DNA from: Escherichia coli
Lineage (GTDB): Bacteria; Pseudomonadota; Gammaproteobacteria; Enterobacterales; Enterobacteriaceae
Assembly: GCF_003334765.1 (NCBI RefSeq)
Contig: NZ_QOWT01000009.1
Length of the DNA: 64,000 nt
Strand: one strand, 5' to 3'
The notes under the pieces: generated by a model
What the model saw: the letters and a program-made list of their open reading frames with translations, nothing else
What the model was told of the DNA's origin: nothing
Databases searched by the model: none
Part shown: positions 4,287 to 33,952 of the stretch, piece after piece
Numbering within the stretch: position 1 is the stretch's first letter
Layout of the letters: every line of letters begins with the position of its first letter
Program-made: the position numbers and the translations under genes

Positions 4287-4304
4287 TTGTATTGTGATCG
4301 GTAA

Positions 4305-4580
<276 letters not shown>

Positions 4581-5219: not shown

Positions 5220-6008
5220 ATGCAAACGATTATCCGTGTCGAGAAGCTCGCCAAAACCTTCAATCAGCATCAGGCGCTGCATGCGGTTGATCTGAACATT
5301 CATCACGGTGAAATGGTGGCTCTGCTTGGGCCGTCGGGTTCCGGAAAATCCACCCTTTTACGTCACTTAAGCGGTTTGATTACCGGCGATAAATCTGTCG
5401 GTAGCCATATCGAGCTGCTGGGCCGCACAGTCCAGCGCGAAGGCCGCCTGGCCCGCGATATCCGCAAAAGCCGCGCCCATACCGGCTACATATTCCAACA
5501 ATTCAACCTGGTGAACCGCCTGAGCGTACTGGAGAACGTGCTGATTGGCGCGCTCGGCAGCACGCCGTTCTGGCGCACCTGTTTTAGCTGGTTCACCGGC
5601 GAGCAGAAACAGCGCGCGTTACAGGCGCTGACCCGCGTTGGCATGGTGCATTTTGCCCATCAGCGCGTTTCCACCCTCTCCGGCGGCCAGCAGCAACGTG
5701 TGGCGATTGCCCGTGCGCTGATGCAGCAGGCGAAAGTGATTCTGGCCGATGAACCCATCGCCTCGCTGGACCCAGAATCAGCGCGCATCGTGATGGACAC
5801 CCTGCGCGACATCAACCAGAACGACGGCATCACCGTGGTCGTCACGCTGCATCAGGTGGATTACGCCCTGCGCTACTGCGAACGCATCGTCGCCCTGCGC
5901 CAGGGGCACGTCTTCTACGACGGCAGCAGCCAACAGTTTGATAACGAACGTTTTGACCATCTCTACCGCAGCATTAACCGCGTCGAAGAGAACGCGAAAG
6001 CTGCCTGA
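5220..6008 (+). CDS. phnC: Phosphonate ABC transporter ATP-binding protein PhnC
   Basis: ORF track; Walker [13 protein letters not shown] signature [12 protein letters not shown] gggagg upstream. Confidence 0.96.
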
Positions 6009-6032: not shown

Positions 6033-7049
6033 ATGAACGCTAAGATAATTGCCTCGCTGGCCTTCACCAGCATGTTCAGCCTCAGCACCCTGTTAAGCCC
6101 GGCGCACGCCGAAGAGCAGGAAAAGGCGTTGAATTTCGGCATTATTTCAACGGAATCACAGCAAAACCTGAAACCGCAATGGACGCCGTTCTTGCAGGAT
6201 ATGGAGAAGAAGCTGGGCGTGAAGGTCAACGCCTTCTTTGCCCCGGACTACGCGGGCATTATCCAGGGGATGCGCTTCAATAAAGTGGATATCGCCTGGT
6301 ACGGCAATCTGTCGGCGATGGAAGCGGTGGATCGCGCCAATGGCCAGGTCTTCGCCCAGACGGTCGCGGCGGATGGATCGCCGGGTTACTGGAGCGTGTT
6401 GATCGTCAACAAAGACAGTCCGATCAACAACCTGAACGATCTGCTGGCGAAGCGGAAAGATCTCACCTTTGGCAATGGCGATCCTAACTCCACCTCTGGC
6501 TTCCTCGTCCCCGGCTACTACGTCTTCGCCAAAAACAATATCTCCGCCAGCGACTTCAAGCGCACCGTCAACGCCGGGCATGAAACCAACGCGCTGGCCG
6601 TCGCCAACAAGCAGGTGGATGTTGCCACCAACAACACCGAAAACCTCGACAAGCTGAAAACCTCCGCGCCAGAGAAGCTGAAAGAACTGAAGGTGATCTG
6701 GAAGTCGCCGCTGATCCCAGGCGATCCGATCGTCTGGCGCAAGAATCTTTCCGAAACCACCAAAGACAAGATCTACGACTTCTTTATGAACTACGGCAAA
6801 ACGCCGGAAGAAAAAGCGGTGCTGGAACGCCTGGGCTGGGCGCCATTCCGCGCTTCCAGCGACCTGCAACTGGTGCCGATTCGCCAGCTCGCGCTGTTTA
6901 AAGAGATGCAGGGCGTGAAAAGCAATAAAGGACTGAATGAGCAGGACAAGCTGGCAAAAACCACCGAGATTCAGGCGCAGCTGGATGACCTGGACCGCCT
7001 GAACAACGCGCTAAGCGCGATGAGTTCGGTGAGTAAAGCGGTGCAGTAA
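6033..7049 (+). CDS. phnD: Phosphonate ABC transporter periplasmic binding protein PhnD
   Basis: ORF track; N-terminal signal peptide then recognised PhnD sequence. Confidence 0.96.
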   Translation: MNAKIIASLAFTSMFSLSTLLSPAHAEEQEKALNFGIISTESQQNLKPQWTPFLQDMEKKLGVKVNAFFAPDYAGIIQGMRFNKVDIAWYGNLSAMEAVDRANGQVFAQTVAADGSPGYWSVLIVNKDSPINNLNDLLAKRKDLTFGNGDPNSTSGFLVPGYYVFAKNNISASDFKRTVNAGHETNALAVANKQVDVATNNTENLDKLKTSAPEKLKELKVIWKSPLIPGDPIVWRKNLSETTKDKIYDFFMNYGKTPEEKAVLERLGWAPFRASSDLQLVPIRQLALFKEMQGVKSNKGLNEQDKLAKTTEIQAQLDDLDRLNNALSAMSSVSKAVQ

Positions 7050-7053
7050 ATCG

Positions 7054-7140
7054 TAGGTCGGATAAGACGCCCCGGCGTCGCATCCGACAATGTGCAGGCG
7101 TTGATGCCGGATGCGGTGCAAGCACCTTATCCGGCCTACA
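7054..7140. repeat. REP element pair (BIME) between phnD and phnE
   Basis: taggtcggataagacgc...gcgtcgcatccgaca and gccggatgcgg...ccttatccggcctaca palindromes. Confidence 0.85.
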
Positions 7141-7154
7141 GACCGGAGCCAAAC

Positions 7155-7942
7155 ATGCAAACCATCACCATCGCCCCACCCAAGCGCAGCTGGTTCTCGC
7201 TTCTGAGCTGGGCCGTTGTACTCGCCGTGTTGGTCGTCTCGTGGCAGGGCGCGGAAATGGCCCCGCTTACGCTGATCAAAGACGGCGGCAACATGGCGAC
7301 GTTCGCCGCCGACTTCTTCCCGCCCGATTTCAGCCAGTGGCAGGATTACCTCACCGAAATGGCCGTCACGCTGCAAATCGCCGTCTGGGGCACCGCGCTG
7401 GCGGTGGTTCTCTCCATCCCCTTTGGCCTGATGAGCGCCGAAAACCTGGTGCCGTGGTGGGTTTACCAGCCCGTTCGCCGCCTGATGGACGCCTGCCGCG
7501 CCATTAACGAAATGGTCTTCGCCATGCTGTTCGTGGTCGCCGTCGGCCTCGGCCCGTTCGCTGGCGTGCTGGCGTGCTGGCGCTGTTTATCCACACCACC
7601 GGCGTGCTCTCCAAGCTGCTTTCCGAAGCGGTGGAAGCGATTGAACCCGGCCCGGTGGAAGGCATTCGCGCCACCGGTGCCAACAAGCTCGAAGAGATCC
7701 TCTACGGCGTGCTGCCACAGGTGATGCCACTGCTGATCTCCTACTCCCTCTATCGCTTCGAATCCAACGTCCGCTCGGCGACCGTCGTCGGCATGGTCGG
7801 CGCAGGCGGGATCGGCGTCACCCTGTGGGAAGCGATTCGCGGTTTCCAGTTCCAACAAACCTGCGCCCTGATGGTGCTTATCATCGTCACGGTCAGCCTG
7901 CTGGATTTCCTCTCTCAACGGTTGCGTAAGCACTTTATCTGA
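7155..7942 (+). pseudogene. phnE: phnE phosphonate ABC permease, frameshifted (cryptic K-12-type allele)
   Basis: N-terminal part in frame 0 (ATG 7155), C-terminal permease part in a different frame (ORF 7574..7942); frames separated by an 8-bp repeat tract at 7560..7583. Confidence 0.9.
7560..7583 (+). repeat. Three tandem 8-bp units (gctggcgt gctggcgt gctggcgc) causing the phnE frameshift
   Basis: Read directly in sequence; loss of one 8-bp unit would join frame 0 to the downstream frame. Confidence 0.9.
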
Positions 7943-7962: not shown

Positions 7963-8688
7963 ATGCACTTGTCTACACATCCGACCAGCTACCCAACACG
8001 CTATCAAGAGATAGCCGCAAAACTTGAGCAGGAGCTTCGTCAACACTACCGCTGCGGCGACTATCTTCCCGCCGAGCAGCAACTGGCAGCGCGCTTTGAG
8101 GTGAATCGCCACACCCTGCGCCGCGCCATCGACCAACTGGTGGAAAAAGGCTGGGTACAGCGCCGTCAGGGCGTCGGCGTGCTGGTGCTGATGCGCCCGT
8201 TCGATTACCCGCTCAACGCCCAGGCGCGTTTTAGCCAGAATCTGCTGGATCAGGGCAGCCATCCCACCAGCGAAAAACTGCTTTCGGTATTGCGCCCCGC
8301 GTCCGGCCACGTCGCTGACGCACTGGGGATTACCGAGGGGGAGAACGTCATCCACCTGCGCACCCTGCGTCGTGTCAACGGCGTCGCGCTCTGTTTAATC
8401 GACCACTACTTCGCGGACCTCACCCTCTGGCCGACGCTGCAACGCTTCGACAGCGGCTCGCTGCACGATTTTCTGCGCGAGCAAACCGGAATTGCGCTGC
8501 GCCGCAGCCAGACGCGGATCAGCGCCCGCCGCGCCCAGGCCAAAGAGTGCCAGCGTCTTGAAATCCCGAATATGTCGCCGCTGCTGTGCGTGCGCACCCT
8601 TAACCACCGTGACGGTGAAAGCAGCCCGGCGGAGTACTCCGTCAGCCTGACGCGCGCCGACATGATTGAATTCACTATGGAGCACTGA
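7963..8688 (+). CDS. phnF: GntR-family transcriptional regulator PhnF (241 aa)
   Basis: ATG at 7963 within ORF 7954..8688 (track starts at an upstream TTG); N-terminal HTH region. Confidence 0.93.
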   Translation: MHLSTHPTSYPTRYQEIAAKLEQELRQHYRCGDYLPAEQQLAARFEVNRHTLRRAIDQLVEKGWVQRRQGVGVLVLMRPFDYPLNAQARFSQNLLDQGSHPTSEKLLSVLRPASGHVADALGITEGENVIHLRTLRRVNGVALCLIDHYFADLTLWPTLQRFDSGSLHDFLREQTGIALRRSQTRISARRAQAKECQRLEIPNMSPLLCVRTLNHRDGESSPAEYSVSLTRADMIEFTMEH

Positions 8689-9141
8689 ATGCACGCAGAT
8701 ACCGCGACCCGCCAGCACTGGATGTCCGTGCTGGCGCACAGCCAACCGGCTGAACTGGCAGCACGCCTGAACGCGCTAAACATCACCGCCGACTATGAGG
8801 TGATCCGCGCCGCTGAAACTGGCCTGGTACAGATTCAGGCGCGGATGGGCGGCACCGGCGAACGTTTTTTTGCCGGCGACGCCACGCTGACCCGCGCCGC
8901 CGTGCGCCTGACTGACGGCACGCTCGGCTACAGCTGGGTGCAGGGGCGTGATAAACAGCACGCCGAACGCTGCGCGCTGATTGACGCGCTGATGCAGCAA
9001 TCTCGCCACTTTCAAAACTTATCAGAAACCCTTATTGCCCCGCTGGACGCTGACCGTATGACACGCATTGCCGCACGCCAGGCCGAAGTGAACGCCAGCC
9101 GGGTCGACTTCTTTACGATGGTTCGCGGAGACAACGCATGA
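8689..9141 (+). CDS. phnG: C-P lyase complex subunit PhnG
   Basis: ORF track; start directly abuts phnF stop. Confidence 0.95.
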
Positions 9142-9722
9142 CCCTGGAAACCGCTTTTATGCTTCCCGTGCAGGATGCCCAGCACAGTTTTCGTCGCCTG
9201 TTAAAGGCCATGAGCGAGCCGGGCGTGATTGTCGCCCTGCATCAGCTCAAACGCGGCTGGCAACCGCTGAATATCGCCACCACCAGCGTGCTGCTGACGC
9301 TGGCCGATAACGACACGCCGGTGTGGCTTTCTACCCCATTAAATAACGATATCGTCAACCAGAGCCTGCGTTTTCATACCAACGCGCCGCTGGTCAGCCA
9401 GCCGGAACAGGCGACCTTCGCGGTGACGGATGAGGCGATTTCCAGCGAACAGCTCAACGCCCTTTCCACCGGCACCGCCGTTGCGCCGGAAGCGGGTGCG
9501 ACGCTGATTTTACAGGTCGCCAGCCTGAGCGGCGGACGCATGTTGCGCCTTACTGGTGCGGGTATTGCCGAAGAACGAATGATCGCTCCGCAGCTGCCGG
9601 AGTGCATTCTGCACGAACTCACCGAGCGCCCGCATCCGTTCCCGCTCGGCATCGACCTGATCCTGACCTGTGGCGAGCGCCTGCTGGCTATTCCGCGAAC
9701 CACTCATGTGGAGGTGTGCTGA
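9138..9722 (+). CDS. phnH: C-P lyase complex subunit PhnH
   Basis: ORF track; start overlaps phnG stop (ATGA). Confidence 0.95.
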
Positions 9723-10786
9723 TGTACGTTGCCGTGAAAGGGGGCGAGAAGGCGATCGACGCCGCCCACGCCCTGCAAGAGAGCCGACGCCGAGGCGATA
9801 CCGATTTGCCCGAACTGAGCGTCGCCCAGATTGAACAGCAGCTTAACCTCGCGGTAGATCGCGTGATGACCGAAGGCGGCATTGCCGACCGCGAACTGGC
9901 GGCGCTGGCGCTGAAACAGGCCAGCGGCGATAACGTTGAAGCGATTTTCCTGCTGCGCGCCTACCGCACCACGTTGGCGAAGCTGGCGGTAAGCGAGCCG
10001 CTCGACACCACCGGGATGCGTCTCGAACGCCGTATCTCCGCCGTTTATAAAGACATTCCCGGCGGCCAGCTGCTTGGCCCAACCTACGACTACACCCATC
10101 GCCTGCTCGATTTTACCCTGCTGGCAAACGGCGAAGCGCCGACGCTGACCACCGCCGACAGCGAACAGCAGCCGTCGCCGCACGTTTTCAGCCTGCTGGC
10201 GCGTCAGGGGCTGGCGAAGTTTGAAGAGGATAGCGGCGCACAGCCGGATGACATCACCCGCACGCCGCCGGTTTACCCCTGCTCACGCTCCTCCCGTTTG
10301 CAGCAGTTGATGCGCGGCGACGAAGGCTATTTGCTGGCGCTGGCCTACTCCACCCAACGCGGTTACGGGCGCAATCACCCGTTCGCAGGCGAGATCCGCA
10401 GCGGCTATATCGACGTGTCGATTGTGCCGGAAGAGCTGGGATTTGCGGTGAACGTCGGCGAACTGCTGATGACTGAGTGTGAAATGGTTAACGGTTTTAT
10501 CGACCCGCCGGGTGAGCCGCCGCACTTCACGCGCGGCTACGGGCTGGTGTTCGGCATGAGCGAGCGCAAAGCGATGGCGATGGCGCTGGTCGACCGCGCT
10601 CTGCAAGCCCCGGAGTACGGCGAGCACGCGACAGGCCCGGCGCAGGATGAAGAGTTCGTGCTGGCACATGCCGACAACGTCGAAGCCGCAGGCTTTGTCT
10701 CACACCTCAAACTCCCCCACTACGTCGATTTCCAGGCCGAACTGGAGCTACTCAAACGTCTGCAACAGGAGCAGAACCATGGCTAA
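9722..10786 (+). CDS. phnI: C-P lyase complex subunit PhnI (354 aa)
   Basis: Internal ATG 9722 ([13 protein letters not shown]...) overlapping phnH stop as TGATG; ORF track shows longer upstream extension that overlaps phnH. Confidence 0.93.
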   Translation: MYVAVKGGEKAIDAAHALQESRRRGDTDLPELSVAQIEQQLNLAVDRVMTEGGIADRELAALALKQASGDNVEAIFLLRAYRTTLAKLAVSEPLDTTGMRLERRISAVYKDIPGGQLLGPTYDYTHRLLDFTLLANGEAPTLTTADSEQQPSPHVFSLLARQGLAKFEEDSGAQPDDITRTPPVYPCSRSSRLQQLMRGDEGYLLALAYSTQRGYGRNHPFAGEIRSGYIDVSIVPEELGFAVNVGELLMTECEMVNGFIDPPGEPPHFTRGYGLVFGMSERKAMAMALVDRALQAPEYGEHATGPAQDEEFVLAHADNVEAAGFVSHLKLPHYVDFQAELELLKRLQQEQNHG

Positions 10787-11624
10787 TCTGAGCGGCTACA
10801 ACTTTGCCTACCTCGACGAGCAGACCAAACGCATGATCCGCCGCGCCATCTTAAAAGCGGTGGCGATCCCCGGTTATCAGGTGCCGTTTGGCGGGCGCGA
10901 GATGCCGATGCCGTACGGCTGGGGAACCGGCGGCATTCAGCTTACCGCCAGCGTGATTGGCGAAAGCGACGTGCTGAAGGTGATTGACCAGGGCGCGGAT
11001 GACACCACCAACGCCGTGTCGATTCGCAACTTCTTCAAGCGCGTGACCGGGGTAAACACCACGGAACGTACGGACGATGCGACGGTTATCCAGACGCGTC
11101 ACCGCATCCCCGAAACGCCGCTGACCGAAGATCAGATAATTATCTTCCAGGTGCCAATCCCCGAGCCGCTGCGCTTTATCGAGCCGCGCGAAACGGAAAC
11201 CCGCACCATGCACGCGCTGGAAGAGTACGGCGTGATGCAGGTGAAACTGTATGAAGATATCGCCCGCTTCGGTCATATCGCCACCACCTACGCCTATCCG
11301 GTGAAGGTAAATGGGCGCTACGTGATGGACCCGTCGCCGATCCCGAAATTCGATAACCCAAAAATGGACATGATGCCCGCCCTGCAACTGTTCGGCGCGG
11401 GGCGCGAGAAGCGCATCTATGCGGTGCCGCCGTTTACCCGCGTGGAAAGTCTCGATTTCGACGATCACCCGTTCACCGTTCAGCAGTGGGATGAGCCATG
11501 CGCCATCTGCGGATCGACCCACAGCTATCTTGATGAAGTGGTGCTGGATGACGCCGGAAACCGCATGTTTGTCTGCTCCGATACCGATTATTGCCGCCAA
11601 CAGAGCGAGGCAAAAAACCAATGA
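10779..11624 (+). CDS. phnJ: C-P lyase catalytic subunit PhnJ (281 aa)
   Basis: Internal ATG 10779 (MANLSGYNFAYLDEQ...); C-terminal Cys cluster CAICGS...CSDTDYC. Confidence 0.93.
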   Translation: MANLSGYNFAYLDEQTKRMIRRAILKAVAIPGYQVPFGGREMPMPYGWGTGGIQLTASVIGESDVLKVIDQGADDTTNAVSIRNFFKRVTGVNTTERTDDATVIQTRHRIPETPLTEDQIIIFQVPIPEPLRFIEPRETETRTMHALEEYGVMQVKLYEDIARFGHIATTYAYPVKVNGRYVMDPSPIPKFDNPKMDMMPALQLFGAGREKRIYAVPPFTRVESLDFDDHPFTVQQWDEPCAICGSTHSYLDEVVLDDAGNRMFVCSDTDYCRQQSEAKNQ

Positions 11625-12379
11625 ATCAACCGTTACTTTCGGTCAATAACCTGACCCACCTTTACGCGCCGGGCAAAGGCTTTAGCGATGTCTCTTTTGA
11701 TTTATGGCCGGGGGAAGTGCTGGGCATTGTCGGGGAATCCGGCTCCGGGAAGACCACGCTGCTGAAGTCGATCTCCGCGCGCCTGACGCCGCAGCAGGGG
11801 GAAATTCACTACGAGAACCGTTCGCTGTATGCAATGAGCGAGGCCGACCGCCGTCGCCTGCTGCGTACCGAATGGGGCGTGGTGCATCAGCATCCACTCG
11901 ACGGCCTGCGCCGCCAGGTGTCGGCGGGCGGCAATATCGGCGAGCGGCTGATGGCGACCGGGGCACGTCATTACGGCGATATTCGTGCCACCGCGCAGAA
12001 GTGGCTGGAAGAGGTGGAGATTCCCGCCAACCGGATCGACGACCTGCCGACCACCTTTTCCGGCGGTATGCAGCAGCGTTTGCAGATTGCCCGCAACCTG
12101 GTGACGCATCCGAAGCTGGTGTTTATGGATGAACCGACCGGCGGGCTGGATGTGTCGGTGCAGGCCCGCCTGCTCGACCTGCTGCGCGGCCTGGTGGTGG
12201 AGCTGAACCTCGCGGTGGTGATTGTCACCCATGATTTAGGCGTCGCCCGCCTGCTGGCGGACCGTTTGCTGGTGATGAAGCAGGGGCAAGTGGTGGAGAG
12301 TGGGTTAACCGACCGCGTGCTCGACGACCCGCATCATCCGTATACACAGCTGCTGGTGTCATCGGTTTTGCAGAATTGA
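11621..12379 (+). CDS. phnK: C-P lyase-associated ABC-type ATPase PhnK
   Basis: ATG 11621 overlaps phnJ stop (ATGA); Walker [10 protein letters not shown]. Confidence 0.95.
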
Positions 12380-12384
12380 GCCGG

Positions 12385-12470
<86 letters not shown>

Positions 12471-12489
12471 CCGAACCACGAGGCGAAAA

Positions 12490-13170
12490 ATGATTAACGT
12501 ACAAAACGTCAGTAAAACCTTCATCCTGCACCAGCAAAACGGCGTGCGCCTGCCCGTCCTCAATCGCGCCTCGCTCACCGTCAACGCGGGCGAATGCGTG
12601 GTGCTCCACGGCCATTCCGGCAGCGGCAAATCAACTCTGCTACGCTCGCTGTACGCCAACTATCTGCCCGACGAAGGTCAAATCCAGATCAAACACGGTG
12701 ACGAGTGGGTAGACCTGGTCACCGCGCCAGCGCGCAAAGTGGTGGAAATCCGCAAAACCACCGTCGGCTGGGTGAGCCAGTTTCTGCGCGTCATCCCGCG
12801 TATCTCAGCACTGGAAGTGGTGATGCAGCCGCTGCTCGATACCGGCGTTCCGCGTGAAGCCTGCGCCGCTAAAGCCGCGCGTCTTCTCACCCGCCTGAAC
12901 GTGCCGGAACGCCTGTGGCACCTGGCACCATCGACATTTTCCGGTGGCGAACAGCAGCGCGTCAACATCGCCCGCGGCTTTATCGTCGACTACCCCATTC
13001 TGCTGCTTGACGAACCTACCGCCTCGCTGGACGCCAAAAACAGCGCCGCGGTGGTGGAACTGATTCGCGAAGCCAAAACCCGTGGCGCAGCCATCGTAGG
13101 CATCTTCCATGACGAAGCTGTACGTAATGACGTCGCCGACCGCCTGCACCCAATGGGAGCCTCTTCATGA
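12490..13170 (+). CDS. phnL: C-P lyase-associated ABC-type ATPase PhnL (226 aa)
   Basis: ATG 12490 ([11 protein letters not shown]...); Walker [10 protein letters not shown]; ORF-track upstream extension runs through the REP element and is rejected. Confidence 0.93.
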
Positions 13171-14303
13171 TTATCAATAACGTTAAGCTGGTGCTGGAAA
13201 ACGAGGTGGTAAGCGGTTCGCTGGAGGTGCAGAACGGCGAAATCCGCGCCTTTGCCGAAAGCCAGAGCCGCCTGCCGGAGGCGATGGACGGCGAAGGCGG
13301 CTGGCTGCTGCCGGGGCTGATTGAGCTGCATACCGATAATCTGGATAAATTCTTCACCCCGCGCCCGAAAGTTGACTGGCCTGCCCACTCGGCGATGAGC
13401 AGCCACGACGCGCTGATGGTGGCGAGCGGCATCACCACCGTACTGGATGCCGTGGCAATTGGCGACGTGCGCGACGGCGGCGATCGGCTGGAGAATCTGG
13501 AGAAGATGATCAACGCCATCGAAGAGACGCAGAAACGCGGCGTCAACCGCGCCGAGCACCGTCTGCATCTGCGCTGCGAACTGCCGCATCACACCACGCT
13601 GCCGCTGTTTGAAAAACTGGTGCAGCGCGAGCCGGTGACGCTGGTGTCGCTGATGGACCACTCGCCGGGCCAGCGCCAGTTCGCCAACCGCAAGAAGTAT
13701 CGCGAATATTATCAGGGCAAATACTCCCTCACTGATGCGCAGATGCAGCAGTACGAAGAAGAGCAACTGGCGCTCGCCGCACGCTGGTCGCAGCCGAATC
13801 GCGAATCCATCGCCGCCCTGTGCCGCGCGCGAAAAATTGCGCTTGCCAGCCACGATGACGCCACCCACGCCCACGTTGCTGAATCTCACCAGCTTGGCAG
13901 CGTGATCGCCGAATTTCCCACCACGTTCGAAGCGGCGGAAGCCTCGCGCAAGCATGGCATGAACGTGCTGATGGGCGCGCCGAATATTGTGCGCGGCGGC
14001 TCGCACTCCGGCAACGTGGCGGCCAGTGAACTGGCGCAGCTTGGCCTGCTGGATATCCTCTCTTCCGACTACTACCCCGCCAGCCTGCTCGATGCGGCAT
14101 TTCGCGTCGCCGATGACCAGAGCAACCGCTTTACGCTGCCGCAGGCGGTGAAGCTGGTGACTAAAAATCCAGCGCAGGCGCTTAATCTCCAGGATCGCGG
14201 GGTGATTGGCGAGGGCAAACGCGCCGACCTGGTGCTGGCGCATCGCAAGGACAATCATATTCATATCGACCACGTCTGGCGTCAGGGTAAAAGGGTGTTC
14301 TGA
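13167..14303 (+). CDS. phnM: Amidohydrolase-family PhnM (ribose-triphosphate diphosphohydrolase of the C-P lyase pathway)
   Basis: ORF track; start overlaps phnL stop. Confidence 0.95.
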
Positions 14304-14860
14304 TGATGGGAAAACTGATTTGGTTAATGGGGCCGTCCGGCTCCGGGAAAGACAGCCTGCTGGCGGAACTCCGCCTGCGGGAACAAACTCAGTTACTGGT
14401 GGCGCATCGCTACATCACGCGCGATGCCAGCGCCGGAAGTGAAAACCATATCGCCCTGAGCGAGCAGGAGTTTTTTACCCGCGCGGGGCAAAATCTGTTG
14501 GCCTTAAGCTGGCACGCTAACGGTCTGTATTATGGCGTCGGCGTCGAGATTGATCTCTGGCTGCACGCCGGATTCGACGTGCTGGTCAACGGCTCACGCG
14601 CCCATCTGCCGCAGGCGCGGGCGCGCTATCAATCGGCGCTGCTGCCCGTCTGTTTACAGGTTTCGCCGGAGATCCTCCGCCAGCGCCTGGAAAACCGTGG
14701 CCGTGAAAACGCCAGTGAAATTAACGCCCGCCTGGCGCGCGCCGCCCGCTATACTCCACAGGATTGCCATACGCTCAACAATGACGGCAGCCTGCGCCAG
14801 TCGGTCGACACGCTGCTGACGCTGATCCATCAGAAGGAGAAACACCATGCCTGCTTGTGA
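14303..14860 (+). CDS. phnN: Ribose 1,5-bisphosphate phosphokinase PhnN
   Basis: ORF track; P-loop GPSGSGKDS; start overlaps phnM stop (TGATG). Confidence 0.95.
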
Positions 14861-15281
14861 GCTTCGCCCGGCCACGCAGTACGACACCGACGCGGTTTAC
14901 GCGCTGATTTGTGAGCTAAAACAGGCGGAGTTTGACCACCACGCGTTTCGCGTGGGTTTTAACGCCAATCTGCGCGACCCAAACATGCGCTACCATCTGG
15001 CGCTGCTTGATGGCGAAGTTGTCGGCATGATCGGCCTGCATTTGCAGTTTCATCTGCATCATGTCAACTGGATCGGCGAAATTCAGGAGTTGGTGGTAAT
15101 GCCGCAGGCGCGCGGTCTGAACGTCGGCAGTAAGTTACTGGCGTGGGCAGAAGAAGAAGCCCGCCAGGCCGGGGCCGAAATGACCGAACTTTCGACCAAC
15201 GTGAAGCGCCACGACGCGCACCGTTTCTATCTGCGCGAAGGCTACGAGCAGAGCCACTTCCGCTTCACCAAGGCGCTGTAA
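14847..15281 (+). CDS. phnO: GNAT acetyltransferase PhnO (aminoalkylphosphonate N-acetyltransferase)
   Basis: ORF track; overlaps phnN end. Confidence 0.94.
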
Positions 15282-15282
15282 C

Positions 15283-16041
15283 ATGAGCCTGACCCTCACG
15301 CTCACCGGCACCGGCGGCGCACAGGGCGTTCCGGCATGGGGCTGCGAGTGTGCGGCCTGCGCCAGAGCGCGGCGCTCGCCGCAGTATCGCCGCCAACCGT
15401 GCAGCGGCGTAGTGAAGTTTAACGACGCAATCACCCTGATCGACGCCGGGCTGCACGATCTCGCCGATCGCTGGTCGCCCGGATCGTTCCAGCAGTTTTT
15501 GCTGACGCATTATCATATGGATCACGTCCAGGGGCTGTTTCCGCTGCGCTGGGGCGTTGGCGATCCGATCCCGGTTTACGGCCCGCCGGATGAACAGGGC
15601 TGCGACGATCTGTTTAAACATCCGGGCCTGCTTGATTTCAGCCACACGGTGGAACCGTTTGTGGTGTTTGATTTGCAGGGGTTACAGGTCACGCCCCTGC
15701 CGCTCAACCACTCAAAACTGACCTTCGGTTATCTGCTGGAAACGGCACACAGCCGGGTGGCGTGGCTGTCTGACACCGCAGGCTTGCCGGAAAAAACGCT
15801 GAAATTTTTACGCAATAATCAGCCGCAGGTAATGGTGATGGATTGCAGTCACCCGCCGCGCGCGGATGCACCGCGTAATCACTGTGATTTAAATACCGTG
15901 CTTGCGCTGAATCAGGTTATCCGCTCGCCACGGGTGATTCTGACCCATATCAGCCACCAGTTTGATGCGTGGCTGATGGAAAACGCACTACCGTCAGGGT
16001 TTGAGGTGGGGTTTGATGGGATGGAGATTGGGGTGGCGTGA
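15283..16041 (+). CDS. phnP: Metallo-beta-lactamase-fold phosphodiesterase PhnP
   Basis: ORF track; HxHxDH motif (THYHMDH) in translation. Confidence 0.95.
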
Positions 16042-16187: not shown

Positions 16188-16517
16188 TCATCGCCCATAC
16201 TCATCTTCCATTCTCCGCTCTTCATCCTCCAGTTGCCGACGCTCCTGATCAAGCTGGCGCTGGCGATCGTCCAGCTGCCTGCGGCGATCTTCAAACTGGC
16301 GGCGGCGGTCGTCATATTGTCTGCGCCGATCGTCGCTCACTTCACGCTGCCAGCCGTCGTCGCGCGAATCTTCATAGTCTCGCCCACGGTCAGGGTTATA
16401 AGCGTCATTAATCGCCTGCTGAATATTGCCAATGGTGTCGTCGATAATATCGGCCTGGGCCGGAACGGTGGACAGCGTGAGCAGGGTGAATAAAAGAAAT
16501 AGCGGAAAGCGTTTCAT
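16188..16517 (-). CDS. yjdP: Secreted low-complexity protein YjdP (109 aa)
   Basis: ORF track; signal peptide then highly charged repetitive D/R/Q/E-rich region (DDRRRQ-like repeats). Confidence 0.85.
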   Translation of the reverse strand: MKRFPLFLLFTLLTLSTVPAQADIIDDTIGNIQQAINDAYNPDRGRDYEDSRDDGWQREVSDDRRRQYDDRRRQFEDRRRQLDDRQRQLDQERRQLEDEERRMEDEYGR

Positions 16518-33949: not shown

Positions 33950-33952
33950 GAT

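Follow-up and report, generated by a model that had tools for sequence, protein, structure and literature searches.

The three-unit 8-bp repeat in phnE of Escherichia coli: the known cryptic phn allele and its copy number among complete genomes

In the 64-kb stretch of E. coli DNA analyzed here (hereafter the window), the phosphonate permease gene phnE is spread over two overlapping open reading frames that meet at a short tandem repeat. RefSeq K-12 records place a phnE pseudogene at the same coordinates (7155–7942, plus strand, 788 nt), annotated as a "frameshifted" phosphonate ABC transporter permease. A preliminary description of the window attributed the frameshift to a triplicated 8-bp unit, and took the locus for a reversible, contingency-type switch rather than a dead gene. 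The question is whether this repeat is an evolved switch, a relic in a decaying gene, or a revertible lesion that has become the usual state of a lineage. We address it through the anatomy of the tract, the effect of unit number on the reading frame, and the copy number of the unit in complete E. coli genomes.

The repeat tract and the reading frame of phnE

The triple unit is present at 7560–7583 on the plus strand, as the preliminary description had it, and corresponds to nt 406–429 (codons 136–143) of the phnE ORF. It consists of GCTGGCGT (7560–7567), a second GCTGGCGT (7568–7575), and GCTGGCGC (7576–7583). Tandem Repeats Finder (TRF) reports a perfect period-8 tract of 23 nt at 7560–7582 (2.9 copies, 100% matches), the sole perfect short-period array among the seven that it finds in 64 kb. 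The length of the three-unit tract is beyond chance, with one period-8 tract of at least 23 nt in the window and 0.0 in 100 shuffles; the 15-nt tract of the two-unit ON form is at chance level, with two tracts of at least 15 nt observed in the window and 2.9 expected from the shuffles. Other repeats in the window include a REP-like array of 100-bp period in the yjdM-yjdN spacer (4301–4580; 2.8 copies, 95% matches) and a 21-bp-period repeat in the minus-strand gene yjdP (16262–16334; 3.5 copies, 75% matches), which is in-frame coding sequence of a "DDRRRQL repeat protein".

Both open reading frames named in the preliminary description, 7092..7724 in frame 0 and 7574..7942 in frame 2, exist, and the change from one frame to the other is accounted for by the shift of +8 nt (+2). 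In RefSeq, phnE begins with the ATG at 7155, which shares its frame with the GTG at 7092; the latter was dropped as a start codon because RefSeq uses the ATG and because the GTG falls within a REP-like element of the spacer upstream of phnE. Read from 7155, the gene encodes 140 native residues followed by 49 out-of-frame residues, up to a stop codon at 7722–7724. The C-terminal part is found in the shifted frame on the same strand (7574–7942), opening with a GTG that is itself within the repeat. No Shine-Dalgarno-like sequence is visible in the window directly upstream of this GTG, so that separate translation of the 7574–7942 frame would not be expected.

TIGR01097, the NCBIfam equivalog model for PhnE, has a curated cut-off of 216.7 bits. 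The phnE gene as encoded in the window yields only fragments of this profile, an N-terminal one of 127.7 bits and a C-terminal one of 176.5 bits, both below the cut-off. The NCBIfam match of the truncated product spans residues 16–140 only, the C-terminal frame covers profile positions 131–251, and the two fragments abut at positions 131–133. The frame break falls inside a hydrophobic segment (residues 113–153). In the BPD_transp_1 superfamily the EAA loop contacts the ATPase and couples the permease to it. The corresponding segment of PhnE, EAVEAIEPG...LP at residues 155–185 of the restored protein (coding region 7625–7717, plus strand), aligns with the loop region of MetI. The frameshift is upstream of this segment, which the truncated product lacks; the coupling loop is thus removed together with the C-terminal membrane segments.

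When one unit is deleted in silico, a continuous ORF of 259 amino acids (780 nt including the stop codon) is obtained. The single permease ORF anticipated in the preliminary description is therefore borne out, although not its length of about 262 residues. Deleting two units or adding one leaves the frame broken, and adding two (five in total) restores it with eight extra residues. Hence the reading frame of phnE depends on how many units this intragenic tandem repeat holds: two or five units are in frame; one, three, and four are out; and seven and ten are out by arithmetic, in agreement with the annotation of the respective records as frameshifted. The restored protein scores 311.5 bits on TIGR01097, above the cut-off of 216.7, and covers positions 8–251 of 252. 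It carries a BPD_transp_1 domain (Pfam PF00528) at residues 88–258 (E = 5.6e-26), and its nearest solved relative, MetI (6cvl/3dhw), aligns over residues 125–254. It is identical to WP_001193500.1, the protein of the two-unit natural strains 2015C-3101, ETEC1732, and Z217-2, and also to PhnE of the MG1655 record CP032679.1 (São Paulo), a two-unit allele on the K-12 haplotype. The latter record would be consistent with a laboratory revertant, namely strain RI57 of Stasi et al. Loss of one unit is thus sufficient in silico to restore both the frame and the wild-type protein.

The gene stands in the context typical of PhnE, next to phnC and phnD and upstream of the C-P lyase genes. The ATPase gene phnC (5220–6008) and the binding protein gene phnD (6033–7049), both on the plus strand, are intact according to the ORF list and the annotated, near-identical K-12 EMG2 record. 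The plus-strand region from phnF to phnP (7963–16041), comprising the regulator, the C-P lyase core, and accessory genes, is annotated as intact in the EMG2 record, as are all 13 other phn genes of the 14-gene operon. The phnD-phnE spacer holds a putative REP-type palindromic element (7050–7150), recognized by its sequence appearance; this spacer is polymorphic, and some lineages align from 7144 onward only (query position 45).

The known cryptic phn allele and its proposed mechanism

The allele in the window is already known: it has been published as the cryptic phn allele (Makino 1991; Iqbal 2004; Stasi 2019). In K-12, PhnCDE is described as cryptic through an 8-bp insertion in phnE (PMC6469041), and growth on phosphonates is reported to be deficient until the unit is lost (PMC6469041, PMC3463581). 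The nomenclature phn(EcoK0) / phn(EcoK+) is found in PMC3463581. The spontaneous revertant RI57 of Stasi et al. is reported to have lost 5'-GCTGGCGT at nt 407–414 of the phnE ORF; the same source states that phnE+ revertants arise via slippage and are easily selected, and that the three-unit junction in K-12 was verified by Sanger sequencing (PMC6469041). An identical 8-bp deletion was reported for all five evolved strains in another study, in which high-frequency slippage between direct repeats was held responsible (PMC4759930). The window shares with phn(EcoK0) of K-12 the gene, the 8-bp unit 5'-GCTGGCGT, its location at ORF nt ~406–414, the three-versus-two logic, and the restored protein. 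The functional phnE found in E. coli B and the majority of isolates (WP_001193500.1) is likewise matched in its protein after removal of one unit and in its phnCDEFGHIJKLMNOP context, but it contains two units in a continuous frame whereas phnE of the window contains three.

It is almost certain that phnE of the window represents this known allele, in which a third unit added by slippage inactivates the gene and the loss of one unit restores it. For the slippage mechanism, the Phn- phenotype, and the selection of revertants we rely on the literature, not on sequence analysis. The two-unit wild-type repeat results from the codon choice for Ala-Gly-Val-Leu-Ala-Leu (residues 136–141) in a transmembrane stretch. 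Replication slippage would duplicate a unit to give the third copy, adding 8 nt and shifting the frame by +2. With a truncated product that lacks the EAA loop and the C-terminal membrane segments, the PhnCDE importer presumably cannot assemble, and phosphonates would not be taken up even though the rest of the 14-gene operon is intact. Slippage loss of one unit would then yield the 259-aa PhnE and a Phn+ cell, and reverse slippage would turn the gene OFF again. Reversion by slipped-strand loss of a unit, as put forward in the preliminary description, agrees with the in silico restoration, with the two-unit record CP032679.1, and with the published revertants; none of the observations speaks against this mechanism.

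Copy number and haplotypes among complete genomes

Iqbal et al. reportedly observed Phn+ variants at around 10^-2 in 2004, and are said to have judged the OFF form unique to K-12. Our literature search for the distribution of the cryptic allele among natural isolates or phylogroups returned nothing relevant. A census was taken with junction-specific megablast queries against 5,426 complete E. coli genomes, the queries being built so that a 28-mer seed exists only at the intended copy number, with exact seeding required. The phnE gene was found in 5,395 of the 5,426 genomes. Three units are present in about 998 of the 5,426 (about 18%), a genome count that does not represent independent events since the collection is rich in clonal and laboratory strains. 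Two perfect units with flanks like those of the window occur in 2,462 genomes. The repeat is interrupted in the form GCTGGTGT GCTGGCGC (O157:H7 type) in 309 genomes and in the form GCTGGCGT ACTGGCGC in 409. Fourteen genomes have at least four units: 12 with four, and OkiPb01713 with seven and 2013C-4974 with ten, the last two being single, unreplicated records. A query for the one-unit allele with 19-nt flanks had no match in the 5,426 genomes. Of the 5,395 genomes with phnE, some 1,200 are outside these classes, some of them because two flanking SNPs next to a perfect two-unit repeat block seeding; L017, L018, and L021, sampled from this group, have such alleles.

Reading individual genes gave a consistent picture of copy number and annotation. 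All 16 annotated-intact phnE genes that were read have two units, as opposed to the three of the window. An intact gene with three units, which would have contradicted the preliminary description, is absent from these 16, and every allele read with three, four, seven, or ten units is annotated as frameshifted. In EC-107, a three-unit strain from chicken, the last unit is GCTGGCAC instead of GCTGGCGC, a point mutation within the frameshifted tract. OkiPb01713 (1511–1566, seven units) and 2013C-4974 (1504–1583, ten units) have identical phnE haplotypes, and PGAP names the gene in both "PhnE/PtxC family ABC transporter permease, frameshifted" and no longer phnE. Three to five matches to the phnE region are on plasmid-classed records, and a few genomes hold two to three copies of the region.

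The preliminary description had called the cryptic allele typical of K-12. It is indeed the known K-12 allele but is not peculiar to K-12, as many of the approximately 998 three-unit genomes, and most of those in a sample, are from natural isolates. In a spread of 60 three-unit genomes, 34 of the 58 full-length matches are on chromosomes larger than 4.70 Mb, and these strains were isolated from, among others, humans, dogs, cats, pigs, chickens, cattle, seawater, and sediment; the remaining genomes of the spread include the K-12 derivatives BW2952, DH5alpha, C600, and EPI300. The OFF allele, we infer, is no laboratory artefact and came down by inheritance in a large natural lineage to which K-12 belongs.

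Copy number also varies among near-identical genomes. The exact phnE haplotype of the window (0 SNPs outside the tract) carries two units in ETEC1732 and Z217-2, three in EC-107, and four in VR50. The seven- and ten-unit alleles share a second haplotype, 0 SNPs apart from each other and 22 SNPs from the window, which carries two units in six exact-match genomes. Since this haplotype is otherwise a two-unit one, the expansion to seven and ten units is independent of the haplotype of the window. Expansions have thus arisen on at least two haplotypes, and all of them sit on perfect-repeat backgrounds. The haplotype of the window is represented by about 1000 OFF and about 5–6 ON genomes, one of the latter being the two-unit MG1655 record; lineages other than that of the window are essentially all ON.

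The window and K-12 EMG2 share 99.98% identity, with 13 mismatches in 64 kb, one 1-nt gap, and a copy difference in a REP array, and natural isolates score nearly as well. One of the 13 differences, the synonymous position 7645 in phnE (A vs G), sets the window apart from EMG2 and is common to several natural isolates: VR50, EC-107, ETEC1732, and Z217-2 have the base of the window, whereas two MG1655 records differ. The window may therefore come from a close relative of K-12 rather than from K-12 itself. All four differences from EMG2 in the first 32 kb are inside the phn operon (the synonymous phnE change at 7645, PhnG A125T at 9061, a synonymous phnK change at 11926, and PhnM E176K at 13692); at 9061, VR50, EC-107, ETEC1732, and Z217-2 have the K-12 base, unlike the window. 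The only notable length difference concerns a REP/BIME-type tandem array of 113-bp period (33952–34216, 2.3 copies in the window), which has about two copies more in EMG2 (226 nt longer). The window is without an identical match among the complete genomes of the collection.

Evolved switch, dead gene, or standing state of a lineage

We read the tract as a slippage-prone and genuinely revertible frameshift that a large natural lineage, K-12 included, has inherited as its standing state. The possibility that the extra unit merely reflects sequencing or assembly error is negligible: assemblers may miscount short tandem repeats, and the seven- and ten-unit records are single ones, but about 1,000 complete genomes, assembled independently, show the same three-unit junction, and its Sanger confirmation has been published (PMC6469041). 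It is likewise highly improbable that the three-unit gene still functions, be it as a split permease (7155..7724 plus 7574..7942) or by ribosomal recoding through the repeat. Each fragment does keep a recognizable half of the PhnE profile, and a TraDIS preprint reports that phn insertions affect the fitness of a three-unit strain under fosfomycin, which suggests that phn is not fully silent. Nevertheless, the break is within the hydrophobic segment, the internal GTG at 7574 inside the repeat lacks an upstream ribosome-binding motif, and K-12 is reported to be deficient in phosphonate growth until it loses a unit (PMC6469041, PMC3463581). More serious is the view that phnE is a dead gene, a lineage-specific frameshift on its way to decay whose revertibility is biologically irrelevant. 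The near-fixation of the OFF state over roughly 1,000 genomes of the lineage would fit it, as would the four units in 12 genomes, which are expected of a tract free of selection. We still regard it as unlikely, because a single 8-bp loss brings back the very protein of functional strains, laboratory revertants are reported to be readily selected (PMC6469041, PMC4759930), phnC, phnD, and phnF to phnP are without secondary lesions in the K-12 record, and rare two-unit alleles exist on the identical haplotype in the natural isolates ETEC1732 and Z217-2.

Slightly better placed than decay, though improbable too in our judgment, is an evolved contingency locus, in which the repeat is kept by selection for fast ON/OFF switching of phosphonate (and phosphate) uptake, as in surface genes of Haemophilus and Neisseria. 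The literature itself uses the term "reversible phase variation", in the title of Iqbal 2004 (as cited in PMC6469041 and PMC3463581). As in the contingency loci of Haemophilus, Neisseria, and Campylobacter, the repeat is intragenic, slipped-strand changes in copy number toggle the frame, and the gene faces the environment through nutrient uptake. Two, three, and four units on a single haplotype and the independent expansion to seven and ten on a second are in line with such switching, and so is a remaining operon that is intact despite the OFF phnE. The ON state could also carry a plausible cost, as PhnCDE may import fosfomycin-like phosphonates according to the TraDIS preprint. On the other hand, the unit of phnE is long (8 bp) in comparison with those loci, its ON state has only two copies, and its tract is far shorter; the 15-nt ON tract occurs at the frequency expected by chance (2 vs 2.9). 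In at least 718 genomes (the 309 of the O157:H7 type plus the 409 of the ACTGGCGC type) the repeat is interrupted by synonymous SNPs; the tract is thus not conserved as a repeat across E. coli, and its retention among strains goes no further than chance or codon needs would account for. Unlike in classical contingency loci, ON and OFF are split by lineage in the genome data: one state dominates in each (about 1000 OFF vs about 5 ON in that of the window, essentially all ON elsewhere), and both phases are not common within a lineage. Lesions of other kinds, such as an internal stop in phnD of strain 1303 and in phnF of ecoli019, both with a two-unit phnE, and the largely missing phnE of W409 (whose match to the query region is limited to the first 225 nt), suggest ordinary gene loss. 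The label "contingency-type" of the preliminary description goes further than the data: the locus is revertible and its copy number varies in nature, but we found nothing to indicate that the repeat is kept for the sake of switching.

The revertible frameshift that we favor accounts for annotations in which K-12-like genomes show phnE as a pseudogene or as two ORFs. It is also a warning that such a "pseudogene" is one slippage event away from function. The state of the allele also bears on phosphorus-source phenotypes, on adaptive evolution under phosphate starvation, and possibly on fosfomycin susceptibility. The census leaves the established picture of cryptic phn unchanged; its addition is a modest one, namely that natural isolates of the lineage related to K-12 widely carry the OFF allele (about 18% of the clonally biased collection) and that expansion reaches up to 10 units. 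We tentatively raise the further possibility, which we hold less likely than not, that the three-unit OFF form persists as the standing state of this lineage because the loss of import is perhaps favored in the presence of toxic phosphonates while a one-step return is kept, which would amount to a slow, lineage-scale switch. If this is true, the three-unit allele is no curiosity of K-12 or the laboratory but belongs to strains whose hosts and habitats include humans, livestock, pets, wildlife, and water, and the loss of PhnCDE could serve to keep out fosfomycin-like compounds rather than to allow fast phase variation.
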